A stretch of DNA of 64,000 bases, from NCBI GenBank assembly GCA_964484715.1, contig CAZAFJ010000010.1:1056-65055 (forward strand). The letters run 5' to 3'. A program made the translations under genes and the position numbers. Position 1 is the stretch's first letter; each line of letters opens with the position of its first letter. This document shows, piece by piece, positions 2,855 to 61,954 of the stretch. The stretch is from an uncultured Anaerolineaceae bacterium. GTDB lineage: Bacteria > Chloroflexota > Anaerolineae > Anaerolineales > Anaerolineaceae. Under the pieces are notes generated by a model that saw only the letters and a program-made list of their open reading frames with translations, was not told the origin of the DNA and did not search any database.

Positions 2855-3943
2855 ATGAATAAAATCACAAAGTACCCACGCAACCAAGGCCGACGCATTG
2901 TTTTAAACCTTATCATCCGAGGACTTTTTCGTTTACTCGCAAGAGTAAAAGTCGAGGGACGCCAAAACATCCCCAAAACAGGTCCAGTGATCCTCGCCGG
3001 CAATCACGTCGAAAACCTTGAAGCCGGCTTCCAAATGGCCTATCCCAAACGAATTGTTGAACCCATCGGTGCCGGGGACATCCCCTTTGGCTTAGGACTG
3101 GATGGAATCATCGGCTATTATGGCTTTATTCCGATTGACCGGGGTACTGTGGACCGTGGCGCCTTGCGCGAAGCCCAATCTGTGCTCGAACAAGGCGCTG
3201 TGTTGGGCATTTACCCTGAGGGGGGCACCTGGCGACCTGGCAAGATGCCAGCTCAAATTGGCGTGGCGATGTTAAGCGAACGCGGTAAGGCACCTGTCGT
3301 CCCCATTGGTTACAGTGGTTTTAGTGGCTCAACGCAGGCTGTCCTCAAACTAAAACGCCCCAAACTTACCATGCGCGTTGGCAAACCCATTCCGCCTTTG
3401 GTGATTGACCCTGATGGACCGCCTAAAAAAGTCCAGATGCAAGCCTATGCTGATGAGGTCATGCGCCAGGTTTATGCCTTGTTGGATGAAGCCGACCTGA
3501 ACATCACGCCAGACCATGAAAGCTATCAACTTGAAATTAAACGAGGTTCTTTCTCTCAAGACTATGAAACTTTAGGAGATACCGAAGGCGCGGATGCCTT
3601 TGTCAGCTTCATCAACACAAAAATCATCCTCGACACCTTAAAAGACAGCTTAAGTCTTCCTACCCAGCCTTTTTACCCAGGTCAAGAAAACCAAACCCTG
3701 GATAATCTCATTGAAGCCATCGATTCAACCCTAAACTACCTCAAAGAGAAACCCAGCTTTTTCACTTACCGCATGGGGATAGAATTGGGTAGTGATGTGC
3801 CCGTCTTCTTAAGAAATTTGCGTGAAATCGCCGCTGATTGCAAGGCGCAACAGAAAAACCTGCTTATGGATGCCAAAATCAAAGCGCGATATCGTAATGG
3901 TGAAGAGCGCGATATCCTCCACCAATTTGCCTTCCGTCCTTAA
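2855..3943 (+). CDS. lysophospholipid (PlsC-like) acyltransferase domain protein with a ~180-aa C-terminal extension
   Basis: AGNHVENLE (HX4E instead of the canonical HX4D) and GIYPEGG motifs. The track start at 2828 is TTG, so the first ATG at 2855 is preferred. Confidence 0.7.
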   Translation: MNKITKYPRNQGRRIVLNLIIRGLFRLLARVKVEGRQNIPKTGPVILAGNHVENLEAGFQMAYPKRIVEPIGAGDIPFGLGLDGIIGYYGFIPIDRGTVDRGALREAQSVLEQGAVLGIYPEGGTWRPGKMPAQIGVAMLSERGKAPVVPIGYSGFSGSTQAVLKLKRPKLTMRVGKPIPPLVIDPDGPPKKVQMQAYADEVMRQVYALLDEADLNITPDHESYQLEIKRGSFSQDYETLGDTEGADAFVSFINTKIILDTLKDSLSLPTQPFYPGQENQTLDNLIEAIDSTLNYLKEKPSFFTYRMGIELGSDVPVFLRNLREIAADCKAQQKNLLMDAKIKARYRNGEERDILHQFAFRP

Positions 3944-3967
3944 TCAATAAAGAAATGACATTAAGCC

Positions 3968-5698
3968 TTAGAGGGTTTCTTTCTCGCTCGGTTTAAGATC
4001 CTTGATATAAAGCTGCACATTACGCATGCCCTGAAAGTCGTTAACTCCGATGGTATAGACAATATCGATATAATCAGGCATGTTTGCTGCCCAATGACCC
4101 ATGCCCCAAGCAATGGCCTCGAATTCTTGTTGACCATCCCTGACCCTTAACTTCAAATGAGCACCGCCAGCACCTACCGTACGCGGGGCGACAACCTGAC
4201 AGTGGCGACTACTAAAAAGTGCAGGGGGATTTTTTTGGCCGGTCGGTTCCAATTGCGCGACATCGTTGAGGATTCCAGGGATGTGCTCAGGTCGCAGGCG
4301 GCTCAAATCAATGTCATAATCGATGCGTACAACCGGCAACAACGCCAAACCAGCCAAGCTTTCTTGAGCAACTTCGTTAATACGTTTTTTGAACGCTTCA
4401 ACATTTTCTTTGCTCACAGCCAAACCTGCTGCCATCGCATGACCACCGTGTCTGTCGAGTAAATCCGCGCATTTCTTGAGCGCCTCATGGATGTTAAACT
4501 CTTCAATTGAGCGAGCAGAAGCAACAATCGTATCACCCTCAATATGTCCCACAATGGTTGGTTTATAGAGTGCATTGACAACCTTCCCGGCAGCCAAACC
4601 GACCAAACCCTGGCTAAATTGCTCAGAGGCTACAAAAATGACCATTTGGCTCTCATCAATCGCCATCGCCTCTGCCATGACAGCGTCTTCCATATCTTTG
4701 ACCAAGGCTTTGCGCTGTTGGTTCATATTGTCTAGCTCTTGGGCTAATCGTGCAGCTTCAAAAAGGTCTTTTTCAACCAAAAGTTCAAAAGCTGCGTTCG
4801 CGCTATCGATGCGTCCCGCTGCGTTCAATCGCGGACCGATCGTAAACCCCAGATCTCCAGCATTAAGCTGATCCAGCTTGATGCTCGCTACCTGGCTCAA
4901 GGAAAACAGACTCTGGCGCGGGTGCATACGCATCAGCGCTAGCCCACGTTTAACCAGAGAGCGGTTTTCACCAACCAGGTCAGCCACATCCGCGACCGTG
5001 CCAATGGCCACAAAATCTAACCACAGGTCGGGGTCGATGTCTGGGTTTGGATAACGCTGCAAATAAGCCACAGCCAGCTTCCAGGCAATGCTCACACCTG
5101 CCAATCCCTTAAAGGGGTACGGGTCGCCTGGTCTGTGGGGATTGATGATTGCAAGCGCTTCGGGCAAGATTTCAGGCACTTGGTGATGATCGGTAACAAT
5201 CACGCCCATGCCGAGCTCATTCGCCCGCGCTACCTCTGCCACAGCGCCAACACCACAGTCCACAGTGACGATTAAGTGACTACCTTCTTCTGCCAGTTGC
5301 TCAATGGCTTCGATATTTAAACCATACCCTTCATCAAAACGATTGGGGATGTAAACCCTTGGTTCCAGACCCAATTGCGTGAAAAACTCATAAAGAATCG
5401 CTGAAGAAGTAACACCATCCGCGTCATAATCGCCATAAACAGCAATTTTTTGCCCGTTTTGGATGGCATCATGGATCGCTTCAACCGCTTTATCCATATC
5501 CAACATCTGGAAAGGGTCAGGGTTATTTGGCGGCTCGCTGGAGATATAAGCCTGAGCGGCCTCATTGCTGGTGATGCCCCGATTGTAGAGCAACTGTCTC
5601 AAAAAAGGTGAAACAGCGGTCATTTGACGGTTAATATCCTGTGGGATAAGTGGGGAAGTAATCCATCTTTTATCTAACTGGTGATTTTGGCGGGGCAT
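3968..5698 (-). CDS. recJ: single-stranded-DNA-specific exonuclease RecJ
   Basis: DHH-family motifs YGDYDADGVTS, VTVDCG and TDHH, a DHHA1 region, and typical length of 576 aa. Confidence 0.9.
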   Translation of the reverse strand: MPRQNHQLDKRWITSPLIPQDINRQMTAVSPFLRQLLYNRGITSNEAAQAYISSEPPNNPDPFQMLDMDKAVEAIHDAIQNGQKIAVYGDYDADGVTSSAILYEFFTQLGLEPRVYIPNRFDEGYGLNIEAIEQLAEEGSHLIVTVDCGVGAVAEVARANELGMGVIVTDHHQVPEILPEALAIINPHRPGDPYPFKGLAGVSIAWKLAVAYLQRYPNPDIDPDLWLDFVAIGTVADVADLVGENRSLVKRGLALMRMHPRQSLFSLSQVASIKLDQLNAGDLGFTIGPRLNAAGRIDSANAAFELLVEKDLFEAARLAQELDNMNQQRKALVKDMEDAVMAEAMAIDESQMVIFVASEQFSQGLVGLAAGKVVNALYKPTIVGHIEGDTIVASARSIEEFNIHEALKKCADLLDRHGGHAMAAGLAVSKENVEAFKKRINEVAQESLAGLALLPVVRIDYDIDLSRLRPEHIPGILNDVAQLEPTGQKNPPALFSSRHCQVVAPRTVGAGGAHLKLRVRDGQQEFEAIAWGMGHWAANMPDYIDIVYTIGVNDFQGMRNVQLYIKDLKPSEKETL

Positions 5699-5802
5699 CG
5701 TGTCGTCCTTCGTTTTTCTTTATTCTACCTTTTTCTGTCTTCTTTTCCACCCTAAGGTCTGGTCTGAACGATGTTTGAACAACAGAAAGCAAAGAATTAT
5801 TG

Positions 5803-5808
5803 TAAAAT
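5803..5808 (+). promoter_or_regulatory. -10 box TAAAAT 6 nt upstream of the psuG ATG (leaderless architecture)
   Basis: TAAAAT-TGAGAC-ATG, with no RBS possible. Confidence 0.5.
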
Positions 5809-5814
5809 TGAGAC

Positions 5815-6783
5815 ATGGAAAATAATCAGGAAAAGTATCAACCCATCCACACAGCCATCATGGAAAGCGAAGCTGTCCATCACGCGCGTTCTCTTGGCTT
5901 ACCCATTGTTGCTTTAGAATCAACTGTGATCACTCACGGTTTACCCCAAGGCATCAACCTCGACTTAGCCCGCAACATGGAAGCAAGCGTTATCGAAAAC
6001 GGTGCTACGCCAGCCACCGTCGCGGTTCTTGAAGGTCAGATTCGCCTTGGCATCAACGAGGAAGAGCTCCTGGCATTGGCGGAACATCCCAAACCACGCA
6101 AGATTAGCACCCGCGATTTTGGCTATGCCCTGGCGAATAAGCTCACCGGTGGCACAACCGTTGCCGCCACGGCTTATGTTGCTCACAAGCAAGGCTTGCG
6201 TGTTTTTGCCACGGGTGGCATTGGCGGCGTGCATCGTCAGGCGCCTTTTGATGTTTCAGCTGACTTGAGCCAAATCGCCAAAACGCCTATTGTGGTGGTT
6301 TGTGCCGGGATGAAAGCGATTCTTGACCTGCCTGCTACTATGGAATACCTCGAAACCCAAGGCGTGCCGGTCATTGGCTACCAAACTGATGAACTACCGG
6401 CATTCTATTCGCGCGGTAGTGGCATCGCGCTCAACCAACGCGCTGACACACCTCAAGAAGTCGCGCGAATCGCCTACGCGCATTGGTCTTTGGGATTTCG
6501 ACAAGGCATCATCCTAACCGTACCGGCGCCTGAAGAGGAAGCCATTGACCGCGCTGAAATGGAAGCTTGGATCGCGGAAGCGATGAGCCAAGCCCAACAA
6601 GAGGGTATCCACGGAAACGCGGTGACCCCCTATTTGTTGGATAAAGTCAGCGAAGTCAGTCAAGGGCGTAGCATGCAAAGCAATATCGCGCTTCTGCTCA
6701 ACAATGCGCGTGTCGCCAGCCAGCTTGCCATCGAACTAAATGCACTCCTCGGTTTAGAACGCGGCCCTTTTTACTATAGTTAG
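5815..6783 (+). CDS. psuG: pseudouridine-5'-phosphate glycosidase
   Basis: VALESTVITHGLP and GGIGGVHR motifs characteristic of the PsuG/IndA family; 322 aa. Confidence 0.9.
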   Translation: MENNQEKYQPIHTAIMESEAVHHARSLGLPIVALESTVITHGLPQGINLDLARNMEASVIENGATPATVAVLEGQIRLGINEEELLALAEHPKPRKISTRDFGYALANKLTGGTTVAATAYVAHKQGLRVFATGGIGGVHRQAPFDVSADLSQIAKTPIVVVCAGMKAILDLPATMEYLETQGVPVIGYQTDELPAFYSRGSGIALNQRADTPQEVARIAYAHWSLGFRQGIILTVPAPEEEAIDRAEMEAWIAEAMSQAQQEGIHGNAVTPYLLDKVSEVSQGRSMQSNIALLLNNARVASQLAIELNALLGLERGPFYYS

Positions 6784-6816
6784 TATAAATTGCGATAGAA
6801 CTGTGATGAATCACAC

Positions 6817-7701
6817 CTAAGGCGTTTCAGCGTCCGTTGGCTTAGGTGTGTTTGTAGGCCAAGGCGTCGAGGTACTTGTCGGCGTATGAGTCACGGTTGC
6901 GGTGTTGGTTGGTGTTGCGGTTTCGGTAGGTGTGATGGTTGGCGTGTTGGTCGGTGGATTGCCCAAAACCGTAAAGCTTGCGGAACGCTCCCAGCTACTT
7001 CCAACGAAAAACAGCAAGCGATAAGCGCCTGGTTTCCAATCCCCGGGCGGTAGTTCAAGCTTTGCCACGCCATACCCACCACTGCCCCCTTGCCAACGCC
7101 CTGTGTGCGAAGCAATCAACTCGTCGTCACGATACCAGAGCTCGGTCCACTGCACGCCTTCGTCCATCATGTTATAGCTGTAACAAGCATAGATCATTTC
7201 AATCGGGTTCTCGAATTCTTTTGCCGGATCGATGGGCTGCAGCCCTTTATCAACCTCCCGCGCGAAGACGATACCACTTAAGGCATAGTCATCCCCAGGC
7301 GTAATAATTGACTCAAACTGCGTGGCAATCGGGTCAGGAATGGAGGGTGTGTTGGTCACCGAAGGGGTGTTGGTGATGGTAGGTGTGAGCGTGATGGTCG
7401 GCGTCAAAGTGATGGTTGGCGTCAAGGTTATGGTGGGCGTAAGCGAAGGTGTCAAACTGGGTGGAAAGTATTTATACATGATGCCTTCCCCAAAGCGGAA
7501 ATTAAGGAACGCAAAGCCAAACAGCAACAAGGCACCGATAATCAAACGGATACCGATCTCCATCTGGTCACGCCTTTTCGTAAAAAAGGAAATTTTTCGT
7601 CCTTCGACAATCGTTTTACGTGCTCGCCCAGCCGTCACAATTCCCGCCACTAAGGCGATCAGGCTGAGGGTCATAATGGTAGAACGAATGTCGATGTTCA
7701 T
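6817..7701 (-). CDS. membrane-anchored protein with TPTITL-type Pro/Thr repeats
   Basis: Two N-terminal hydrophobic helices, (TPTITL)x4 and a C-terminal PT-rich tail. The globular middle domain is unrecognised. Confidence 0.6.
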   Translation of the reverse strand: MNIDIRSTIMTLSLIALVAGIVTAGRARKTIVEGRKISFFTKRRDQMEIGIRLIIGALLLFGFAFLNFRFGEGIMYKYFPPSLTPSLTPTITLTPTITLTPTITLTPTITNTPSVTNTPSIPDPIATQFESIITPGDDYALSGIVFAREVDKGLQPIDPAKEFENPIEMIYACYSYNMMDEGVQWTELWYRDDELIASHTGRWQGGSGGYGVAKLELPPGDWKPGAYRLLFFVGSSWERSASFTVLGNPPTNTPTITPTETATPTNTATVTHTPTSTSTPWPTNTPKPTDAETP

Positions 7702-7707
7702 GGTCTG

Positions 7708-7713
7708 ATTATA
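7708..7713 (-). promoter_or_regulatory. -10 box TATAAT 6 nt upstream of the ATG of 6817..7701 (leaderless architecture)
   Basis: The minus strand reads GCTATAAT-CAGACC-ATG. Confidence 0.5.
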
Positions 7714-7778
7714 GCATTTAGTGCTTGACTGAAAGGTTGGGCTAAAACGGAGACGGCTTAAATAGAGGGTTTTGCTGA

Positions 7779-8897
7779 TTAATCGAGGTCTGCTTTAGTG
7801 GCTTGTTTGCCGCGACGGCGCATGACGTTAAGCACACGCGGCAAAACATGGGTGTACAGTTTATAAAGCAAAGGACGGCTGGGATAATCCCAAGCGCCAA
7901 TATGGCGGGCGGTAACCCCATTAAAACCCTCTTTGAAGCGATAGACCCCCCACATCGAGTCGCTTTCGTCGAAAACATCCGGCGCGCCCCACATGTCATA
8001 GCTCTCATAGCCCAAGGCTTTGGAAAGACGAATTGCTTCCCATTGTAAGAGGTGATTGGGCATAAGTTCCCGGTATTTATCCGTTGACATGCCGTACACA
8101 TAACGCGAAACCCGATTGAAATGCAGGAGGAATAAACCCGCAATCGGCTCGCCTTCTACCTCAGCAATCAGCGCATGGCACATACCGGCATTCATGAAGC
8201 TTTTCCAAAGCGCGAGATAATAATCCGCACTCCGGATGGCAAAGTCATCCCGCACCGCGGTATGAGCGTACATTTGATAAAGCATGGGCAAGTCTTCGAC
8301 GCTCGCCTGTCTGACACTCACGCCACGACGACCAGCCAAGCGAATGTTATAGCGGGTCTTCTGTTTCATGGCCGCGAGAATGTCTTCTTCTTCACGCAAC
8401 AGGTCAATAAACACTGTATTACGAAATTGAATTTGGTCTTGCGAAAACAGCCATTGTCTGACCTTAAGGTCAGCAAGCATGGCCTCACCTAATGGTTCAC
8501 GGACCTCAGTTTCCGTCCCGGGCACACCGGTACCCAAAAGGACATCCGGATCGATTTTGATGAAAATTGCTTTTTGGTTTTTAGCGTAGTTCTGCAAATC
8601 ATCCAGAACCTCTTTAACCAAGCTTTGGTTCTGCCAATCCAAGCTGGGGCCTTTTGTGCAATACAAAACCCGCAAAGAAACGGGTCCAAGCTTGACTTCC
8701 CGTTGCAAAATCAGGGCACAAGCCTCAATCTCGCCGGCTTCATCCTTCCAAACAAAGCCCTCAGGTGTCCAGCCATTGCGGATTTTTGAAGCTCCCCACT
8801 CCCAGGTTTGTAAAATGTGGCCGTCTGGAAAGCCCAACAATAGCGCATTCCATTCCTGTGGACTGCCCTTAAAGGCTTGCATTACCACCGCCTCCAC
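7779..8897 (-). CDS. FemAB-family peptidoglycan interpeptide-bridge aminoacyltransferase
   Basis: Family-typical blocks: LQTWEWG, MKQKTRYNIRLAGRRGV, NHLLQWEAIR, GVYRFKEGFNG. Confidence 0.75.
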   Translation of the reverse strand: MEAVVMQAFKGSPQEWNALLLGFPDGHILQTWEWGASKIRNGWTPEGFVWKDEAGEIEACALILQREVKLGPVSLRVLYCTKGPSLDWQNQSLVKEVLDDLQNYAKNQKAIFIKIDPDVLLGTGVPGTETEVREPLGEAMLADLKVRQWLFSQDQIQFRNTVFIDLLREEEDILAAMKQKTRYNIRLAGRRGVSVRQASVEDLPMLYQMYAHTAVRDDFAIRSADYYLALWKSFMNAGMCHALIAEVEGEPIAGLFLLHFNRVSRYVYGMSTDKYRELMPNHLLQWEAIRLSKALGYESYDMWGAPDVFDESDSMWGVYRFKEGFNGVTARHIGAWDYPSRPLLYKLYTHVLPRVLNVMRRRGKQATKADLD

Positions 8898-9849
8898 GTC
8901 GTGTTTTGAGCCAAAGGTAAGCCCGATAGAGCAATGGTTTAAAAACTTTCACATAGGCTGGTGCTGAGCGCGTGACGGTTCCACCAAAACCGCGTTTAAA
9001 GCGGTAAACGCCCCACAAGCCATCGGAACGTTGAGTAAACTGCGCTTCGAGTTCCTCCTCAGTGGCATCAGGAATGCCCCACATGTCATAAAGCGTGGCA
9101 CCTTGAGCTTTAGCGTAGCGCATCGCCTCCCATTGCAATAAATAAGTTGGCATCAGGTTGCGCATTTCATCATTCGAAGCCCCGTAAAAATACCAAGCGC
9201 GGTCGCCGTGCAAGAAGAGCATCAGGTAAGCCAAGGATTGGTTTTCAAAGGAAGCGCGCAAAAGCACACATTCCCCATGGGGTGCGAAAAGCTCAAAGGC
9301 GTTTTTGTAATAAGAAAAAGCATGCACCGCAAAACCATCTCGCGAGCTGGTGATGACGGTTTGTTTGTAAAAATCTTCCAGGTCTTGGCTTTGCTCAACC
9401 TTGACCCCTTTGCGTTCAGCCAGGCGGATGTTGTAGCGCGTTTTTTGCTTCATGTTCGCCAGAATGGCATCTTCATCCCCACTGATATCAATGAGAATGG
9501 TGCCGCGGGGTTGAATCGTATCAGGGTCTTTCGCATAATCCAAAAACAATGAGTCCAGCTGCGCTTGATCAAAAGGCTCATTAATATCTGGTTCGATCTG
9601 CAAAAAGACAGCTTTGCGTCGGCGACACTCAGCCTCAATTTTTGGCAGTAAAATGGACCAGTCTTCAGCAAGAGCTACCTTGGGAACATAGGCTATCGAA
9701 TAGCCTAAAGGCAAGGTCTTAAACAACACTAAAGCGGAACTCTGCTCGCCCTCCAGGCGAACCGCGTCCCATCCATACAGACCTTTGAACTGTCCCCAAT
9801 TGTCTGTTTGTAAAATGTGAGGACTGGAGGCGTATTGATAAAAACTCAT
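8869..9849 (-). CDS. FemAB-family peptidoglycan interpeptide-bridge aminoacyltransferase (paralog)
   Basis: Blocks: LQTDNWGQFK, MKQKTRYNIRLAERKGV, TYLLQWEAMR, GVYRFKRGFGG. It overlaps the downstream paralog by up to 29 bp. Confidence 0.75.
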   Translation of the reverse strand: MSFYQYASSPHILQTDNWGQFKGLYGWDAVRLEGEQSSALVLFKTLPLGYSIAYVPKVALAEDWSILLPKIEAECRRRKAVFLQIEPDINEPFDQAQLDSLFLDYAKDPDTIQPRGTILIDISGDEDAILANMKQKTRYNIRLAERKGVKVEQSQDLEDFYKQTVITSSRDGFAVHAFSYYKNAFELFAPHGECVLLRASFENQSLAYLMLFLHGDRAWYFYGASNDEMRNLMPTYLLQWEAMRYAKAQGATLYDMWGIPDATEEELEAQFTQRSDGLWGVYRFKRGFGGTVTRSAPAYVKVFKPLLYRAYLWLKTRRGGGGNASL

Positions 9850-51031: not shown

Positions 51032-53752
51032 ATGACAGATCAGAACGACATTATTAACCCTGAAGACAACTCTGAAGAGCCTTCTGAAACACCAATTCAG
51101 GACCCCACAGAGAACAATGAAGACATTGACTTAAATCCAACGACTGATTTTGAATCAGTGGGCATCGACAAAGAAATGCGCACGGCATATCTCGATTACG
51201 CCATGAGCGTCATCGTAGCGCGTGCCTTGCCAGATGTGCGTGATGGGCTCAAACCCGTCCACCGCCGTATTCTCTACGCGATGGACGATATGGGCATCCG
51301 TGCCAATACGCCTTTCAAGAAGTCCGCGCGTATCGTGGGTGAGGTGCTGGGTAAGTACCACCCCCATGGTGACAGCGCAGTCTACGATACCATGGCGCGC
51401 ATGGCACAAGATTTCTCGATGCGCTACACGCTTGTCCAAGGCCAAGGCAACTTTGGCTCGATTGACGGCGATCCACCCGCGGCAATGCGTTATACCGAAG
51501 CCCGTCTGCAAAAAATCGCCGACGAGCTCATCGCCGACCTTGATAAAGACACCGTCGATTTTGTAGACAACTTTGATGCTTCCTTGCTCGAACCTGAGGT
51601 GCTTCCCGCGCGCATCCCCAGCCTGCTGATGAACGGCTCAAGCGGTATCGCTGTGGGTATGGCCACGAACATCCCGCCCCACAATCTCAAAGAACTGGTT
51701 TCCGCGCTCAATTTGCTTATTGACCGCTGGGACGATATTGAAGAGGTCAGCGTAGAAGAGCTGATGCAACACGTGCCGGGACCCGATTTCCCCACTGGTG
51801 GCGTGATTGTGGGCACTGAGGGCATCCGCCAGGCTTACAGCACCGGTCGCGGTCACCTGATGGTGCGTGGCGAAGCAGTGATCGAAGAAATTCGCGATGG
51901 TCGCTTTGCGATTGTAATTTATGAAATACCCTATCAACTCAACAAAACCAGCCTGATTGAACGCATCGCCGAATTGGTGCGCGAAGGCCGTTTGGATGCC
52001 ATCGCCGACATGCGCGACGAGTCCGACCGCAAGGGCATGCGCATTGTGGTCGAGCTTAAACGCGGCACGCAACCTCGCAAAGTGCTCAATCAGCTCTACA
52101 AATACACCCCACTGCAAAGCACTTTTGCGGTGCAGACGCTGGCGCTCTTGGACGGCGAGCCACGCATGTTCACCCTCAAACGCGCGCTCTACCACTATCT
52201 GGAGCACCGTCAGGTGGTCATCACCCGCCGTACGCTCTTCGAACTCGACAAAGCCAAAAAACGCGCTCACATTCTGGACGGTTTGCTTATCGCTATCGCC
52301 AATCTGGACGCGGTCATCCAAACCATTCGCGAAAGTGCCGACGCTGACCAAGCCAAGACCCGGCTCATCGAACGTTTCTCGCTTAGCCCAGAACAAGCCC
52401 AAGCCATTTTGGACATGCAATTGCGCCGCTTGGCTGCTCTGGAACGCCTCAAAATCGAGGAAGAACACAAGCAATTGATGGAAACCATCGCCGAGCTCGA
52501 AGCCATCCTGGCAGACCCTCAACGCATCCTTGAGATCATCCGCACGGATCTAAACGAGGTCTCAGAAAAATATGGCGACGACCGCCGAACACGCATCGCG
52601 CCTGACCATGAAATGGATTTGTCGGACGAAGCCCTTATCCAGGATGAGCCGGTTTTTGTCTCGATTACCAACCGCGGTTACATCAAACGTGTTGCGGATG
52701 AAGCTTATCGCACGCAATCCCGTGGTGGACGTGGCGTGATTGGCCAAAGCATGCGTGGCGAAGACGAAGTTGTCTTTTTTGAACGTGCCAACACCCTGGG
52801 CACGATGCTCTTCTTCACCGATTTAGGCAAAATCTACACCACGCGTGTGTTTGAATTGCCCGAGGAATCACGCCAAGGCCGGGGTATTCCATTGGTCAAT
52901 CTTTTGGATCTCGAACCCGAAGAAAACGTGACCGCTATGCTCGCGGTAAAGAGTTTTGATGAGGCACAATATTTCGTCATGGCCACCAAACTGGGTCGTG
53001 TCAAACGCCTGCCTTTGGCGAGCTTTGCCAATGTGCGCCCCTCGGGCTTGATTGCGATCAATCTTGACCAAGGCGACAGCTGCGGTTGGGTGCGCAAGAC
53101 CAATGGCAAGGACGATATCATTCTGGTTACCCGTGAGGGTAAAGCGTTGCGCTTTAACGAAAGCCAGGTGCGTGTCACCGGTCGTATGACCATGGGTGTG
53201 ATGGGCATTCGCTTGCGCGGCCAGGATGAAGTGATTGGCATGGAAGTCGTTGAAGAAAATGGCGCCTTGTTGGTGCTTTCGGAACGCGGACAAGGCAAAC
53301 GCACTTTGGTGGAAGAATACATCCCCAAATCACGTGGCACCTTGGGCGTAACCACTTTTGCTCACCTGGAACTTGAAAACATTGGGCCTTTAGCCGAAGC
53401 CTGCATGGTGCAGGAAGAAGATGAAATTACACTGATTTCCCGTGGCGGTATCGTTATGCGCACCAAGGTTGCCCCCATTTCAATCCAAGGCCGCGCGACA
53501 CAAGGTGTACGCGTCATCAACCTGGATGAAGGTGACTCCTTAGCCGCTTTGACCCGCATCAGCGCGACAGAATACTTCCCCCACAAGGACGGCGGTGAGG
53601 AGACGCAAAAGAACGATGATACTGAATCAGATGGTGAAGTTGAAGAACTGGATGCGTCGTTTGACCCTGATAAAACCGATACAAACGGAGATGATACGCC
53701 CTACAACTCCGGTGAAAACAACGAGGATGAGGGCGCGATCTCAGAAGTGTAG
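51032..53752 (+). CDS. gyrA: DNA gyrase subunit A
   Basis: Blocks: [26 protein letters not shown] and [18 protein letters not shown], with catalytic Tyr in [10 protein letters not shown]. There are C-terminal beta-pinwheel repeats and acidic N- and C-terminal tails. Confidence 0.95.
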
Positions 53753-53846
53753 AGTTGGCGTAAACGCCCTTGCTCATCCTGAACCAATAGCGCGGCGTTA
53801 TCCTGTATAGCCAAAAGGCGGAACTGCTCAGTTTCGCCTTTTTTTC
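53701..53846 (-). pseudogene. duplicated 3' fragment of birA (last ~48 codons), no upstream body
   Basis: The minus frame reads [47 protein letters not shown]. It is nearly identical to the BirA C-terminus at 54764..54907. The upstream sequence is unrelated and AT-rich. Confidence 0.75.
53702..53846. repeat. ~145-bp direct repeat, copy A (contains the functional gyrA 3' end)
   Basis: Aligns with 54765..54908 with 5 substitutions and one 1-nt T-run indel. Confidence 0.9.
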
Positions 53847-53917
53847 TATTGATAGCAAATGTTTTTGTCTTTCCCCATAATACCAAGGCTAGCACTTAAT
53901 TCAGAATGCGCTCAAAA

Positions 53918-53994
53918 CTTCCCCCTCTCCTTGGGACCGTTTACATGCCGAGACTCTTTTACGAGGCAGTAGGGTAGGGTGTGATTCTTTTTCC
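53918..53994. repeat. GC-rich hairpin element, copy interrupted by ~34 bp
   Basis: CTTCCCCCTCTCCTTGGGA [CCGTTTACATGCCGAGACTCTTTTACGAGGCAGT] AGGGTAGGGTGTGATTCTTTTT, compared with the intact copy at 54291..54335. Confidence 0.6.
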
Positions 53995-54146
53995 TTGATG
54001 CTCTTAGTCTATATGACAACTTTACTGCTCTATTCGAGACCTTTTCGATGATTTGTTTTTCAACATGTTTTTGGAAATAAATCAAAACACTAAGTGAGAA
54101 AATAAGCCATAAAATAGTATCTGTCTATATTATCAACCGTTTCAAA

Positions 54147-54187
54147 GACCCACCCCCTTTAATCCCCCTCCTCAGGAGGGGGGGAAT
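54147..54187. repeat. GC-rich hairpin element, related copy in inverse orientation
   Basis: GACCCACCCCC...CCCCCTCC-TCA-GGAGGGGG (8-bp stem). The reverse complement has the same layout as the 54291 element: C-rich arm, hairpin, then GGGTGGGTC. Confidence 0.5.
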
Positions 54188-54290
54188 TTCACTCCTTTAT
54201 TTGTGCTTATAAAGGTATTCCTAATATTGAGCAATTGCAGTTGGATGAGCCATTCAAGCATTTAGCTGTTAAATAGTTGGGACAAGCAAG

Positions 54291-54335
54291 CCTTCCCCCT
54301 CTCCTTGGGAGAGGGTAGGGTGTGGGTCTTTTTTA
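54291..54335. repeat. GC-rich hairpin element, intact copy
   Basis: CCTTCCCCCTCTCC-TTG-GGAGAGGG-TAGGGTGTGGGTCTTTTTT with an 8-bp stem. Confidence 0.6.
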
Positions 54336-54363
54336 TTTGGTGTTTACAAACAATAAGATTGTT

Positions 54364-54726
54364 TCACCACTCCAATGGGTGACCTATCTTTTCCTCAATT
54401 AAAATCTTTATTTCTTCACAAACCGCATCAAAAGCTTCATATACATCATTATTAGTAAAACGAACGACCTGAATACCAACCTTATTTAAGTAACGCGTTC
54501 TTTCCTGGTCCCGAACGATGTGGCTATCCAACGCGTGTTGACTTCCATCAATTTCAACTGCCAATTTAGCTTGATGGCAATAAAAATCGACGATATAAGG
54601 ACCGATTACTTTTTGTCGATGGAACGGAATTGGATAACGTCGTAGCGCGTTCCAAAGCCTTTTTTCTTCAAGTGTTGAATGCTTACGGAGATTTCTGGCT
54701 AAATGAGTAAGGTTCTTTATAGCCAT
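54364..54726 (-). CDS. DUF559 (Vsr-like PD-(D/E)xK) endonuclease-domain protein
   Basis: LRKHSTLEEKRLWNALR...YIVDFYCHQAKLAVEIDGSQH...RTRYLNKVGIQVVRFTNNDV is the canonical DUF559 pattern; 120 aa. Confidence 0.85.
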   Translation of the reverse strand: MAIKNLTHLARNLRKHSTLEEKRLWNALRRYPIPFHRQKVIGPYIVDFYCHQAKLAVEIDGSQHALDSHIVRDQERTRYLNKVGIQVVRFTNNDVYEAFDAVCEEIKILIEEKIGHPLEW

Positions 54727-54763
54727 GTCTTGTTTTCATCCCACGTAATTGAAACGAGTTAAT

Positions 54764-55564
54764 TTACAACTCCGGTGAAAACAACGAGGATGAAGGCGCG
54801 ATCTCGGAAGTGTAGAGTTGGCGTAAACGCCCTTGTTCATCCTGAACCAATAGCGCGGCGTTATCCTGTATACCCAATAGGCGGAACTGCTCAGTTTCGC
54901 CTTTTTTCGTTGAAATACCGACCATCTCGCCAATAAAAGCCAACTTTTCATTCCAAAGCGTGATAAAGTCGAGGCTTCCCATGATGGGGCGCAAGGTTGT
55001 AATTTCTTCAACCAAATCAGCCAACATCTCATTAACGGGCACAATACGGCCGACATGTTCTTCTAGGCTGGTGGCTTGAAAACGCAAAACCTCATCCGTT
55101 TGGTGAGACTCTTTCCCCAAGTTGATACCAATACCAACGGCCACAGCATTAATATGGTCGCTCAACCACAGCGCTTCGGTCAAAATACCGCAAATTTTTG
55201 CGCCACCCACGAGCACATCGTTGGGCCATTTTATCTGAGCGGATAGGTGATACTTATTTTCCAGAACATTCACCAATGCCAAGCCCGCCAATGCGGTAAA
55301 GCGAAAAAGGTGACCTTGTTCTTCCGGGGAAGGATGGATAAGTAAAGTGGCTGCCAGGGATTGCCCAGGTTTGGATTGCCAGGTACGGTCTTTTCGACCT
55401 CGCCCTTTGGTTTGATTCAGAGCAGAAAGAACGATGTTGCCAGGTGCCCCGGCTTCCGCCAGACTAAGCGCGTCATCATTGGTCGAGCCAGTTTCCTCCA
55501 ATTTGTAAACTGAAAAACCAGCGATCGTTTTGGGTGTAAGCCCCTTAAGTTGTTCTAAATCCAT
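54764..55564 (-). CDS. birA: biotin--[acetyl-CoA-carboxylase] ligase (no N-terminal HTH)
   Basis: The motif KGRGRKDRTWQS (GRGRxxRxW); 266 aa. Confidence 0.85.
   Translation of the reverse strand: MDLEQLKGLTPKTIAGFSVYKLEETGSTNDDALSLAEAGAPGNIVLSALNQTKGRGRKDRTWQSKPGQSLAATLLIHPSPEEQGHLFRFTALAGLALVNVLENKYHLSAQIKWPNDVLVGGAKICGILTEALWLSDHINAVAVGIGINLGKESHQTDEVLRFQATSLEEHVGRIVPVNEMLADLVEEITTLRPIMGSLDFITLWNEKLAFIGEMVGISTKKGETEQFRLLGIQDNAALLVQDEQGRLRQLYTSEIAPSSSLFSPEL
54765..54908. repeat. ~145-bp direct repeat, copy B (contains the functional birA 3' end plus a dead copy of the gyrA tail)
   Basis: Aligns with 53702..53846. Confidence 0.9.
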
Positions 55565-57955: not shown

Positions 57956-60900
57956 TTAGTGGCGTTTTCTTCGTTTTTTCTTGCCGCGATTTTTAGCTTT
58001 CGCCATGTCTTCATCTGGTGATGCAGAATGGGCGATGCCCTCCTGGGTGCTCGCCAAATTGGGGCGATAACGGAACATGCGGCTAATCACCGTTTGGCGC
58101 ACGGTCGCCATCAGCTCGCTGTACATGCCACTGGCTTTGTGCTTGTACTGCACCAATGGATCGCGTTGAGCATAAGATTCCATGCGAATCGAAACGCGCA
58201 AAGCTTCCATTTCGGTCAAATATTCGACCCATGATTCGGTGAAAGTGCCCAAAAGCAAGTCCCGATAAATACGGGTTTGGGTCTCGTAGCCAAGAACCGC
58301 TTGGATGTCCTCGTGCAAGTCCTCAGGAATTTCATCCACAGGTAATTCAGCAATCGCCTGGTATTGCTCCTCGCCCAACTTCTTCGCCAAAGCCAGTTTT
58401 GAAGGCTCATGGGTCTGGGCGATAACGCGGTTCATGTTTTTGATGTTCATCAAATCTGCGATGCCAAAGATTTCCGCCAGGTGTTCTTCAGCGCCCTTAA
58501 GATGGTCAATTACGCTTTCGGTGACCTCAGCGCTGGTGTTTTTCTTCAGTTTATCTGCCATCAAGTAGAGGTAGTTCAAGCGCATGTGGGCGCGGAACTG
58601 CCGTTGACGTGAACGTGGGTCAAAACCAACCCGTTTACCCATGGTGGTCATTTGTATCGCTTTGTAGAGCGCTTCTTCATCTTCTAGTGCCTCAATCAAA
58701 AGGGCTTGGTTGGCTTCGATATCGCGTGGCACTTCGCCGTTTTCGCCAAACAGGAGCTTGCTACGGTGTTCCAGCGAATCTTGCGCCTGACCCAAGACCT
58801 GCTCACGGATGTCTTCCCAGGGCTGGCTGGCAAGGTCCAAAGCTTTGAAAGGCCAGGTTTCGCCAAAGCGCTTTTCGAGCGTCAAAAGTGTTCTTCTAAG
58901 GTTATTCAGGGTCACGCCCGTGCGCAAAGCATCACGCAAAGGTGCTTTCATGCTCATGGGGTCTTCACGCAGGGTGCGTAGCTCAGCAGCCGCCAGGCGC
59001 ACTTGTGCGCCCATGATATGGCTCAACTCAGCTTGTGGGTCTTGTCCATCTTCAGGGTCATAGGTTTCCAAGAAAGCATCCAGGGCGTCAGAGCGCTCAG
59101 CCATTTGGTCCTTAATGGTCGATTGATTGCGTTCCAAGAGCAGCTCGACACCTTCAATAATATGATCATTTTCCATTTTCACGGCATCTTTTGACAGCTG
59201 CAAAAGTCGCGTCTTTAATTCTTCGAGTTCGTCAACGTCCTCTAATTCATCCGCCACCATTTTTAAGGTATAGGAAGGATAGACGCCAAATTCTGTATTA
59301 ATGGTTGACTGTAAATCTTCAAGCAGCGCCAAAAGCTTCCAGGGACCATCGGGATCGCTCATCGCCTGTTCAACCTTGGGCTCGATTTCATTGCGAATCA
59401 TGTCAGCGACATCATCGTGCAAATCTTCCTTGAGGAAAATGCGGTCGCGCTGCTCATAGATGCGATTACGCTGCGTGTTGAGCACGTCATCATATTCCAA
59501 AAGATGTTTACGCACATCAAAGTTGGAGCCTTCCACGCGGGTTTGAGCCTGCTCGACCATGCGGTTAATCAGCGCGATTTCGATGGGCATACTTTCGTCC
59601 ATCTTGAAGCGTGACAACATGCTTTCCATCTGCTCGCCACCAAACATACGCATCAGCTCGTCGTCCATCGCCAAATAGAAGCGCGACGAACCCGGGTCAC
59701 CCTGGCGACCCGCACGACCACGCAGCTGGTTGTCGATACGGCGCGCTTCGTGGCGTTCCGAGCCAATCACGTGCAAACCGCCGAGTTCACGTACCAGCGC
59801 CATCTGCTCCATGTATTCCTTAAAGGCATCCACAGCGGCTTGTTGTTCTTCTTCAAGCTCAACCGTCAAGCCTTCAACCGCTGCCAAACGTTGCGGCATG
59901 GTCATGTTATAGGGATCCAAATTGCTGTGCTTTGCCAGAATTTGGTTAAGTTCCGAAAGCAAGTTCTCCGGCAGCTCGCCACCCAGTTTGATGTCAACAC
60001 CGCGACCAGCCATGTTGGTGGCGATGGTCACCGCGCCAACCGCACCGGCCTTGGCGATAATCAAGGATTCTTCGGTGTGCTTGCGTGCGTTGAGCACCTG
60101 ATGGGGAATGCCCGCATCAAATACCGGTTTGAGGCGTTCGTATTGCTCGGGTTCGATTTTGAGCAACTCCAAGAGCCCCTCTCGATTGCTTTCGTCGGTC
60201 AGGTCCATCGTGCTCATGCCAAACTGACTGCCCAGACGGCGCAGTTCCGGCATGCGTAGTTTGTCCAAAGGCTCATTCAAGCCGGCAAGTTCCGGCGCGT
60301 GTTGGTAATCTTCTTCTTTCGCACCTTTAGACAGACGCCAGGCACGGCGAATGAGATTGACCTGTAAAACTCGTCGCACCATGTCCGAACTCATGCGACT
60401 GGAGAGGTGTTCGGAGCTTTCTACCGAGGTGGTACCCACCAGTTGGGGGCGACCAATAGCGTGGTAACGCAAAATCTCGAGCACAATCGCGCGCAATTTA
60501 CCTTCCGCGGTGCGATAAATCACATCCGGGTAGTCCTTGCGCTTAAAGTACAATGCGTGTTTGCTCGGGTCGTCTTCAGAGAAATAATAGGTGTAGTCAT
60601 AGCCAAATTCGTCTTTGGCTTGCGCCTGACCAATGCCCGAATCGGAACGCTCGGCCTTGTATTCCAGGTTGGAGGGGATCGCCAAAACGTCCAAACCATA
60701 AATGCGGAAGAATTCTTCCTTTTCGGTCATCGCGGTACCGGTCATGCCGGCCAGCTTTTTGTACATTCTAAAGTAGTTCTGGATGGTCACCGTAGCATGG
60801 GTGATGTTCTCCGCCTCGACCTTGACGCCTTCTTTGGCTTCCACTGCTTGGTGCAAACCGTCCGACCAACGCCGTCCGGGCATCATGCGACCAGTGAATT

Positions 60901-61954
60901 CATCTACGATGACGATTTCGCCACCCTGGACGATGTATTCCTTGTTACGATGGAAGAGGAATTCGGCGCGTAAGCTTTGCTCCAAAAAGCCTAATAAACG
61001 GGCTTGTTCAGGCGCGATATCTTCAGGACGCTCCGGATCAGAAAGCGGCTCACCAAGCATTTCTTCAACATGCGCCACACCGATTTCAGTCAACGAGACG
61101 GTTTGGTCTTTTTCACTCAGGTCATAATCCTCGGGTTTGAGCGCTTTAACAATTTTCGCCATGCGATAGTAGTTTTCCGAATCCTCATGCGCGGGACCTG
61201 AAATGATGAGCGGTGTACGCGCTTCGTCGATGAGGATGTTGTCAACCTCGTCGATGATGGCGAAATGGTGTGGTTTTTGCACACGGTCCGCCCAGCGCAT
61301 GGTGATATTGTCGCGCAGATAGTCGAAGCCAAACTCGCTGTTGGTGCCGTAGGTGATATCCGCTTCATAGGCATATTTTCGGTGCACAGGGCGCAGTTGG
61401 TGCGTTTCTTCAAACAGAGAAGATTCATCCGGGTCATAAAGGAAAGCGCGTTGCGAAGCGCCATCCGAAGCTGAAGCCGACTGTAAAACGCCGGTGCTCA
61501 TCCCCAAAAAGCGATAAATCTGCCCCATCCAGCGGCCGTCACGGCGTGCCAGATAGTCATTGACCGTAATCAGGTGCGCGCCTTTGCCTTCAAGCGCATT
61601 GAGATAAAGCGGCAATGTCGCGCTGAGGGTCTTGCCCTCACCAGTACGCAACTCCGAGATGGAACCGCTGTGCAGGTTGATACCGCAAATGAGCTGCACG
61701 TCATAATGACGCTGACCCAAAACGCGCTTACTGGCTTCTCGCACGGTAGCAAAAGCTTCAGGCAACAAGTCGTCCAGTGTTTCACCTTTGGCGAGCCGCG
61801 CTTTGTATTCGTCGGTTTTGGCAGCCAGCGCTTCATCTGTGAGTGCTTCAAACTGCGGTTCAAGCGCGTTGATTTCTTCAACGATAAGGCTGAGCTTATC
61901 GATAGCTTTTTTGTTGGGATCCCCAGTAAAGAATCTTGCAATTTTTTGTAGCAT
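57956..61954 (-). CDS. secA: preprotein translocase ATPase SecA (unusually long, 1332 aa)
   Basis: Blocks: ELRTGEGKTL (Walker A), IIDEVDNILIDEARTPLIISG, TGTA, ATNMAGRGVDIKLGG, RIDNQLRGRAGRQGDPGSS, LLEYDDVLNTQR, YAQRDPLVQYK. Confidence 0.9.
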   Translation of the reverse strand: MLQKIARFFTGDPNKKAIDKLSLIVEEINALEPQFEALTDEALAAKTDEYKARLAKGETLDDLLPEAFATVREASKRVLGQRHYDVQLICGINLHSGSISELRTGEGKTLSATLPLYLNALEGKGAHLITVNDYLARRDGRWMGQIYRFLGMSTGVLQSASASDGASQRAFLYDPDESSLFEETHQLRPVHRKYAYEADITYGTNSEFGFDYLRDNITMRWADRVQKPHHFAIIDEVDNILIDEARTPLIISGPAHEDSENYYRMAKIVKALKPEDYDLSEKDQTVSLTEIGVAHVEEMLGEPLSDPERPEDIAPEQARLLGFLEQSLRAEFLFHRNKEYIVQGGEIVIVDEFTGRMMPGRRWSDGLHQAVEAKEGVKVEAENITHATVTIQNYFRMYKKLAGMTGTAMTEKEEFFRIYGLDVLAIPSNLEYKAERSDSGIGQAQAKDEFGYDYTYYFSEDDPSKHALYFKRKDYPDVIYRTAEGKLRAIVLEILRYHAIGRPQLVGTTSVESSEHLSSRMSSDMVRRVLQVNLIRRAWRLSKGAKEEDYQHAPELAGLNEPLDKLRMPELRRLGSQFGMSTMDLTDESNREGLLELLKIEPEQYERLKPVFDAGIPHQVLNARKHTEESLIIAKAGAVGAVTIATNMAGRGVDIKLGGELPENLLSELNQILAKHSNLDPYNMTMPQRLAAVEGLTVELEEEQQAAVDAFKEYMEQMALVRELGGLHVIGSERHEARRIDNQLRGRAGRQGDPGSSRFYLAMDDELMRMFGGEQMESMLSRFKMDESMPIEIALINRMVEQAQTRVEGSNFDVRKHLLEYDDVLNTQRNRIYEQRDRIFLKEDLHDDVADMIRNEIEPKVEQAMSDPDGPWKLLALLEDLQSTINTEFGVYPSYTLKMVADELEDVDELEELKTRLLQLSKDAVKMENDHIIEGVELLLERNQSTIKDQMAERSDALDAFLETYDPEDGQDPQAELSHIMGAQVRLAAAELRTLREDPMSMKAPLRDALRTGVTLNNLRRTLLTLEKRFGETWPFKALDLASQPWEDIREQVLGQAQDSLEHRSKLLFGENGEVPRDIEANQALLIEALEDEEALYKAIQMTTMGKRVGFDPRSRQRQFRAHMRLNYLYLMADKLKKNTSAEVTESVIDHLKGAEEHLAEIFGIADLMNIKNMNRVIAQTHEPSKLALAKKLGEEQYQAIAELPVDEIPEDLHEDIQAVLGYETQTRIYRDLLLGTFTESWVEYLTEMEALRVSIRMESYAQRDPLVQYKHKASGMYSELMATVRQTVISRMFRYRPNLASTQEGIAHSASPDEDMAKAKNRGKKKRRKRH

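Follow-up and report, generated by a model that had tools for sequence, protein, structure and literature searches.

The locus described here raises the question of how a small nuclease gene came to lie between two convergent essential genes, gyrA and birA, with neither gene losing its end. It is located in a stretch of 64,000 nucleotides from an uncultured Anaerolineaceae bacterium (GenBank assembly GCA_964484715.1, contig CAZAFJ010000010.1, positions 1,056 to 65,055), hereafter the window; L001, L002, and so on are labels of public contigs or loci that were compared with the 64-kb window. Two copies of a host segment, here termed S, flank an insert that holds a gene for a DUF559 endonuclease. 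On balance, the insert is probably a mobile single-gene nuclease cassette that entered the gyrA/birA junction, both genes being rescued by a 144-bp duplication, a reading that we favor with moderate confidence.

The Duplicated Segment at the gyrA/birA Junction

The gyrA coding sequence (51032..53752, plus strand) specifies 906 aa with a Pfam DNA_topoisoIV domain (E=4e-162) and six DNA_gyraseA_C repeats. That of birA (54764..55564, minus strand) specifies 266 aa, matching Pfam BPL_LplA_LipB and scoring 130 bits, above the cut-off, against TIGR00121; its product is a biotin-protein ligase without the N-terminal repressor domain. Copy A of S occupies 53702..53846 (145 bp) and copy B 54765..54908 (144 bp). 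Their global alignment comprised 145 columns with five substitutions (53731, 53743, 53773, 53810, and 53815 in copy-A coordinates) and one 1-nt indel in a T-run, and a repeat finder returned the pair as the sole long direct repeat in 52.5-56.5 kb (143 nt, 97% identity, spacing 1063). Two copies of ~145 bp with these differences had been described in a first-pass annotation of the window, and the alignment and the repeat search together bear that description out.

Copy A contains the final 17 codons and the stop of gyrA, and after them the 3' untranslated region (UTR) of this gene with its terminator; the minus strand of copy A retains a birA tail that is orphaned but still complete, with 47 codons and a TAG at 53701-53703 (minus-strand open reading frame (ORF) 53701-53895). 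Copy B provides the functional birA tail (stop at 54764-54766) and, on the plus strand, an orphan gyrA tail with a second terminator hairpin. These ORF coordinates agree with the earlier assignment of copy A to gyrA and of copy B to birA. Both substitutions within the 52 bp where the two reading frames overlap hit third codon positions shared by gyrA and birA and are silent in both frames, as the annotation had stated and as the coordinates and the identical translations confirmed.

The ends of S coincide with features of the two genes. Its left end is the birA stop codon, a sharp boundary, and a search to the left of copy B for homology to the gyrA sequence left of S revealed none. At its right end, the high-identity repeat stops at the T-tract of an intrinsic-terminator-like gyrA hairpin (53813..53845, plus strand), composed of GGCGGAACTG-CTC-AGTTTCGCC and a T-run (T6/7; T7 in copy A). 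With respect to the gyrA strand, a terminator scan rated this hairpin as an intrinsic terminator in copy A and also in copy B (54879-54907). Its ancestral position is inside the birA coding sequence, at the codons for KKGETEQFRL, and its internal mismatch is a G-U wobble on the gyrA strand and would be an A-C on the birA strand. The hairpin is nearly invariant in relatives with an empty site, among them L012-L015, where its flanks are ~20% different, and it is kept also in the more distant L183 and L184, with pairing in L183 preserved by a compensatory double change from U-A to C-G. Nothing shorter than this duplicated unit would provide gyrA with a tail, 3' UTR, and terminator and at the same time complete birA by its last 47 codons. 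No symmetric sequence motif was seen at the two duplication boundaries by inspection.

Empty Sites and Age of the Overlap

Contigs with an empty site were found via BirA homologues of 76-81% identity and share the synteny SecA-SurE-histidine kinase-birA with a convergent gyrA. In L012, L013, L014, and L015-L017, a single copy of S is present, DUF559 is absent, and gyrA and birA overlap by exactly 52 bp; in L012, for example, birA spans 5001-5801 and gyrA 5750-8467. The proposal of the first-pass annotation that the ancestral genes overlapped by ~52 bp around one copy of S is therefore realized in existing genomes, and the insert is a derived insertion into an ancestral, overlapping gyrA/birA pair. 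The filled alleles (window, L001-L004) and the empty alleles (L012-L017) belong to different species-level lineages, and no empty allele of the same species was found among the contigs retrieved. None of the seven empty-site contigs contained a bare tandem duplication of S.

More distant relatives have no overlap between gyrA and birA, L183 having a 4-nt gap and L184 a 221-nt spacer, which argues that the overlap is young and arose by a clade-specific extension of both tails. The form of the gyrA/birA junction is plastic in evolution: the two genes may be separated by a spacer or by 4 nt, overlap by 52 bp, or have a cassette between them. In L184 (BirA 65% identity), the spacer between birA and the convergent gyrA (2479-2699) contains a GC-rich hairpin of its own.

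With its empty sites included, the gyrA/birA insertion forms a polarized before/after pair and, as such, a clean natural experiment. It illustrates one way in which convergent genes that overlap become uncoupled, the shared segment being duplicated, and it demonstrates that the coding sequence of a partner gene can harbor a terminator.

Assembly Support and Strain Variation

A structure of this kind could be produced by a mis-join, either of the duplication or of the insert, and the short contigs L005-L010, which break in or at the repeat, illustrate that assemblers have trouble here. An assembly artefact is nevertheless effectively refuted, since four long contigs (L001-L004), each from a different sample, span gyrA-S-cassette-S-birA entirely. 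Identity to the window is 100% for L001 and 98.2-98.7% for L002-L004, the latter three each having their own single-nucleotide polymorphisms, and the differences between copies A and B were reproduced in each of the four filled assemblies. The duplication, for which the annotation had recommended an artefact check, is genuine in four independent assemblies. The exact DUF559 protein of the window is encoded on 13 public contigs. Because the differences between copies A and B are common across strains, those at 53701 and 53743 to all four and those at 53731, 53773, and 53815 to most, the duplication is older than the strain split.

Between the window and L002-L004, the DUF559 ORF has 0/363 differences and birA 22-23/801. 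A sweep specific to the cassette was considered and ruled out by the mosaic nature of the 12-kb alignment. Across 48.4-60.7 kb of the window, blocks with zero differences to L002-L004 (56250-57750, 52500-53250) alternate with blocks that are 3-5% divergent. This mosaic divergence among strains indicates frequent homologous recombination in the population.

The DUF559 Gene and Its Product

The DUF559 gene (54364..54726, minus strand) encodes a 120-aa protein of the Vsr fold that matches PF04480 with E=5e-31 and 107.1 bits against a cut-off of 20.6, covering profile positions 2-106 of 109. The NCBIfam DUF559 equivalog scored 69.8 against its own cut-off of 218; the window protein is thus not that specific equivalog. 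Residues Asp-47, Glu-58, Asp-60, Gln-63, and His-64, which include the acidic and His positions of catalytic type, were invariant in alignments of 13 and 27 sequences and are present in the window protein. An AlphaFold model of the protein (pLDDT 91.5) was compared with known structures by Foldseek, which retrieved NGO0050 (3HRL) with a TM-score of 0.84 and the catalytic domain of I-Bth0305I (3R3P) with a TM-score of 0.83 (E=7e-5); Vsr itself (1VSR/1CW0) was more distant (TM-score 0.53). A weak match to I-Bth0305I also exists in sequence (phmmer E=0.044), and the PADLOC HEase model is matched with E=9.5e-5. The catalytic domain spans the whole 120 aa, with no extra domain. Conserved residues and modeled fold together point to a predicted nuclease activity of the window protein.

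A DUF559 protein in Caulobacter causes DNA damage in vivo and an SOS response and has been proposed to be a repair enzyme (PMC12907096). No close relatives of the window protein were found in the viral contig collection. In the searchable literature, none of the 25 papers in which DUF559 is mentioned treats the family as mobile, and we found nothing relevant on nuclease cassettes between gyrB and gyrA.

Composition of the Insert

The insert between the two S copies measures 918 bp, with a GC content of 0.36-0.43 compared with 0.50-0.59 in gyrA. The DUF559 ORF is its sole Pfam-positive ORF, and no transposase, recombinase, or integrase is encoded. The first-pass annotation had described an AT-rich insert of ~920 bp with a 120-aa DUF559 gene as its only gene and with three hairpins; the former part stands, while the hairpins are two intact ones and a third that is split.

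Behind the DUF559 gene lies an element with terminal inverted repeats, AAAGACCCAC...GTGGGTCTTT (54144..54340), in which two hairpin modules, hp2 and hp1, surround a spacer of ~100 nt (inverted repeats I1 and I2). Both hairpins are intact, the hp2 stem being at 54164-54182 and hp1 at about 54295-54315. An AT-rich spacer (53995..54143) that contains neither a credible ORF nor an RNA family separates this element from hp3 (53913..53994, minus strand), a module that shares direct repeats D4 and D5 with hp1 and is split by a 33-nt insertion. hp3 now folds poorly (z=+1.9) and is 82% identical to an element at 5424-5502 of L098, downstream of a 75%-identical DUF559 gene, the 33-nt "insertion" included. 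A search of 53.5-55.1 kb for known RNA families (Rfam) gave sub-threshold chance matches only, one of which touched the spacer far below its gathering score. The hp2 module varies by a 29-nt indel at about 54153, CTGCTTGCGCGCCGAGTGTTTTTCGAGGC, which is present in L003 (4716-4744), L005, and L009; with the 33-nt insertion in hp3, this suggests that the hairpin modules seem to accept nested insertions. On the other side of the gene, a linker of 37 nt (54727..54763, minus strand) joins the birA stop to the DUF559 start, and a terminator/promoter scan found no promoter-like or terminator-like site in it.

Between copy A and hp3 is a segment of 66 nt (53847..53912) with weak similarities to two other sequences. 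In an anchored alignment (14 tests, one haplotype significant), the L003 haplotype of this segment showed weak collinear similarity to the birA codons upstream of those for KK in L012 (z=4.0, p=0.0007) and L013 (z=3.1, p=0.004). It is equally weakly similar to the spacer behind DUF559 in L098 (z=2.5). If the birA interpretation of this segment is right, the duplication once extended over 200 bp or more, with much faster decay in the outer part than in the inner one.

The contig L005 (Logan SRR21159537, 1-1287) has a DUF559 gene identical to that of the window, preceded by the birA tail and followed first by hp1/hp2 and then by a ROK-family kinase gene. This ROK-kinase context replaces hp3 and gyrA, the switch falling precisely where the hp2 module has its outer end. 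Either a rearrangement took place here or the contig is a chimera formed through a repeated module.

Flanking Repeats across the Family

To place the window cassette among its relatives, we assembled 160 loci encoding proteins with 38-68% identity to the window protein, drawn from species-representative genomes and metagenomes. The 300 nt upstream of each gene were compared with the 300 nt downstream, with shifted positions in the same loci as controls. Significant flanking repeats occurred at 71 of 117 loci (61%; 55 inverted, 39 direct), compared with 4 of 351 controls (1%). Those inspected are hairpin or inverted-repeat modules borne by the cassette and are not host gene ends. Modules at the relatives' loci are of the type CCCTCTCC-N4-GGAGAGGG with a G-rich tail behind it and are concentrated at the DUF559 gene; L057 and L151 have inverted repeats of 28-57 nt on both sides of the gene, with two hairpins in each. 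Bracketing by hairpins or inverted repeats is a family trait of DUF559 loci.

The annotation had suggested that other DUF559 genes might be bracketed by long direct duplications as well, an expectation that failed for host sequence, all inspected repeats being cassette modules. Since the other loci inspected show such cassette-borne modules, the 144-bp host duplication is peculiar to the gyrA/birA site.

Closest Homologues and Their Insertion Site

The nearest DUF559 homologues, from related Anaerolineaceae (L098, 75%; L099-L102, 70%; L023, 68%, frameshifted; L111, 68%; L018, 61%), are located at a different site. They begin 5-8 nt after the stop of the gene for mevalonate diphosphate decarboxylase (MVD), convergent with TfoX/OTCase, and the same hairpin modules follow DUF559 there. 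Directly downstream of DUF559, L099 and L023 have a compact inverted doublet of ~90 nt that is homologous to 54144-54340 in opposite orientation. L098 and the empty-site contig L013 come from one sample and have similar coverage. The MVD site is polymorphic, being occupied by DUF559, by an Mrr-type restriction gene (L185), by Mrr and DUF559 together (L023), or by nothing (L186). L185 (MVD-Mrr) and L186 (empty) were considered as the MVD locus of the window organism itself and rejected, as they belong to other lineages.

In L023 (2520-4930, Anaerolineaceae UBA5404), the Mrr-type restriction endonuclease gene (3527-4444) is inserted in the 3' end of MVD. The MVD tails around Mrr, a functional one at about 3416-3518 and an orphan at 4453-4560, are diverged and agree at 23 of the 24 nt with which they begin. 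Besides the window, L023 provides another example of a gene tail that was duplicated around an inserted nuclease gene.

Occupancy of the Gyrase Locus

In relatives of the Oscillospiraceae-type Clostridia, DUF559 genes occupy four points of the cluster dnaN-yaaA-recF-gyrB-gyrA. The site between gyrB and gyrA is filled in L030, L036, L038, L039, L060, L105, and L120 and by the second copy of L057; the stretch from dnaN to yaaA/recF in L057, L149, and L151; the position after recF in L028; and that after gyrA in L053. Two DUF559 copies are thus present in one cluster in L057, and in L044 the gene adjoins birA. The copies between gyrB and gyrA and those on the dnaN side are 73-83% identical, whereas two further lineages between gyrB and gyrA are only 50-69% identical. 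Apart from the gyrase cluster, frequent neighbors are recJ, dnaJ, and an ABC-F protein gene.

About 91 distinct contexts were sampled, and the dnaN-gyrA cluster makes up ~0.3% of a genome. The 3-4 occupancies, with the window beside gyrA in addition, are well above the chance expectation of ~0.3, a comparison that assumes independence and is not tree-based. Judged from these gene neighborhoods, an association of DUF559 with the gyrase locus recurs across phyla, as the data suggest.

In L151 (8799-9214), the gap between gyrB and gyrA holds a 95-aa GIY-YIG gene instead (8872-9159, Pfam E=6e-17), bracketed by inverted repeats of its own (18-22 nt). This suggests that the site between gyrB and gyrA is a shared hot spot for small nuclease cassettes.

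Origin of the Insertion and of the Duplication

In the scenario that we favor, a selfish cassette would have inserted right after the birA stop, within the last 17 codons of the convergent gyrA, in one anaerobic-digester lineage of Anaerolineaceae. The same event would have doubled a 144-bp stretch that starts at the birA stop and runs through the T-tract of the gyrA terminator, leaving gyrA with its tail and terminator in copy A and birA with its last 47 codons in copy B. Because an insertion would otherwise truncate one of two essential transcription units, only the outcome with a duplication could have been fixed. DUF559 would be read from the birA transcript, 37 nt downstream on the same strand, with the hairpin modules behind it serving as insulators or terminators; judging from this arrangement, DUF559 is probably co-transcribed with birA. 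The cassette would belong to a widespread group of single-gene nuclease cassettes with hairpin-containing inverted-repeat brackets, patchy in distribution and shifting site between close relatives, and its spread was most likely driven by nuclease-initiated recombinational repair in a homing-like manner and not by a transposase. The annotation had called the cassette a candidate mobile unit, which seems reasonable given the patchy multi-site distribution and the fold match to a homing endonuclease.

How the duplication itself arose can be graded further. The chances appear evenly balanced that it came from one of two processes, in which either two nicks 144 nt apart were filled in or the template was switched at the terminator hairpin. 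In the latter variant, repair would re-enter 144 nt upstream; under either, the duplication would be a by-product of the repair of this particular break, with no regular target-site duplication. A tandem duplication that came first, with insertion at its junction afterward, is a distinctly less likely source. The insertion is reversible in principle, since the two S copies could recombine and so re-create the ancestral overlap precisely.

Two other histories lead to the same structure. A spontaneous 144-bp tandem duplication could have uncoupled the genes beforehand, the DUF559 DNA, a foreign or paralogous piece, landing there later by illegitimate recombination as passive cargo and encoding an ordinary, non-mobile repair nuclease of the Vsr-like type. 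No spontaneous rearrangement is commoner in bacteria than a small tandem duplication, and the junction would be the sole tolerated insertion point, with copy A needing its terminator and copy B being coding throughout, which explains the exact placement. The enrichment of recF, gyrB, gyrA, recJ, and dnaN among the homologues' neighbors, together with the proposed repair role of the Caulobacter protein (PMC12907096), likewise speaks for an ordinary repair gene. What makes this history rather unlikely is that the duplication boundaries would have to fall by chance at the stop codon and where the T-tract ends and that a bare tandem duplication was seen in 0 of the 7 empty-site contigs. It also leaves unexplained the family-wide inverted-repeat brackets, the site changes of copies that are 73-83% identical, the two copies in one operon, and the replacement by GIY-YIG.

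Alternatively, a circle carrying one S and the cassette could have integrated by a single homologous crossover in S (Campbell-type), with the reverse reaction excising it precisely. The S-cassette-S topology is exactly that of a single-crossover integrant, and the tails of MVD around Mrr in L023 would fit a crossover in their short conserved stretch. The 1092-bp contig LSQX01158909.1 (L006 = L103) is a circularly permuted insert plus one S with a 30-nt terminal overlap, yet the same contig is expected from a loop of the de Bruijn graph at a collapsed repeat (overlap = k-1, k=31). Moreover, no recombinase is encoded, the retrieved contigs lacked a same-species empty allele, and a first molecule joining S to the cassette must still have arisen. 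We regard this integration as improbable, more so than a duplication that preceded the insertion.

Several observations weigh against a mobile cassette. A cassette at the gyrA/birA site is seen in a single lineage, and the other 63 kb of the window contain no second DUF559 gene or hairpin module. The arrangement of the repeats is also imperfect: the inverted pair 54144-54158/54317-54331 is internal to the insert and not at its ends, no inverted repeat joining the insert ends at 53847 and 54763 was returned by the repeat search, and no hairpin is located upstream of the window DUF559 gene. Site specificity is left unexplained because the N-terminal DNA-recognition region of I-Bth0305I-type enzymes is absent, and classical homing leaves no target duplication, in contrast to the 144 bp found here. 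The identity of the DUF559 ORF among strains does not signal a cassette-specific sweep, divergence being mosaic region-wide. As recF, gyrB, gyrA, recJ, and dnaN are all DNA-metabolism genes, the recurrence of these neighbors could reflect function and not targeting. Finally, the weak similarity past the T-run would, if real, imply a longer and older duplication and would complicate the notion of a minimal one.

Comparison with Known Systems

Vsr-like free-standing homing endonucleases split DNA-metabolism genes and carry gene-end signals along (Dassa et al. 2009, PMC2677866). The DUF559 cassette shares with these EDxHD enzymes, such as I-Bth0305I and the "fractured gene" enzymes, the catalytic fold, a stand-alone nuclease gene at or in essential DNA-metabolism genes with hairpins alongside, and inserted DNA that supplies gene-end signals for host genes. 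It differs in that these endonucleases have 250-320 aa with an N-terminal DNA-recognition region, whereas the window protein consists of the catalytic domain only (120 aa); they are mainly found in phages, whereas DUF559 cassettes reside in bacterial chromosomes; and they leave no 144-bp host duplication. The hairpins are also of different kinds, those of DUF559 being inverted-repeat brackets and that of the homing endonucleases a translational element in the 5' UTR.

The REPIN-RAYT system (Bertels & Rainey 2011, PMC3116915) likewise has one nuclease-type gene with inverted hairpin repeats on both sides, and solo inverted doublets beside the gene (the 90-nt element of L099; window 54144-54340) add to the resemblance. 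RAYTs, however, are relatives of HUH/Y1 transposases, while the window gene is a Vsr-fold DUF559, and REPINs form large dispersed populations, while the hairpin modules of the window have no further copy in 63 kb.

The direct repeats recall phage or integrative and conjugative elements that use att sites at the 3' ends of tRNA or protein genes, where the repeat keeps the 3' end intact and the displaced copy is orphaned. In contrast to such elements, the insert is <1 kb and lacks an integrase or recombinase, and two convergent genes were rescued together. Target-site duplications of transposons or miniature inverted-repeat transposable elements similarly place target sequence directly duplicated on both sides of an insert, but these are 2-15 bp, as set by the transpososome, compared with 144 bp. 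The window insert has neither a transposase nor terminal inverted repeats at its ends, and no host duplication accompanied the other loci inspected.

More tentatively, and in our estimate with a chance clearly short of even, DUF559 and its brackets could constitute an undescribed, widespread class of chromosomal selfish cassettes, in which a minimal Vsr-fold nickase or nuclease is combined with structured ends. Members of this class would move by nuclease-triggered repair, prefer the flanks of the essential DNA-replication genes dnaN/recF/gyrB/gyrA, compete there with GIY-YIG cassettes, and leave long, variable target duplications from filled-in distant nicks, of which the gyrA/birA case would be a fossil. 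The structured-end single-gene cassettes, their patchy distribution and site switching, and the gyrase/recF association would offer a possible biology for DUF559, a large nuclease family of "unknown function". If the mobile reading is true, homing-like behavior would extend to a minimal, catalytic-domain-only nuclease in bacterial chromosomes, and the reconstructed empty site would be a testable substrate.

A Neighboring Gene

SecA, encoded at 57956-61954 on the minus strand of the window, has 1332 aa and was called at equal length in L001 and L002. Typical bacterial SecA proteins are several hundred residues shorter.

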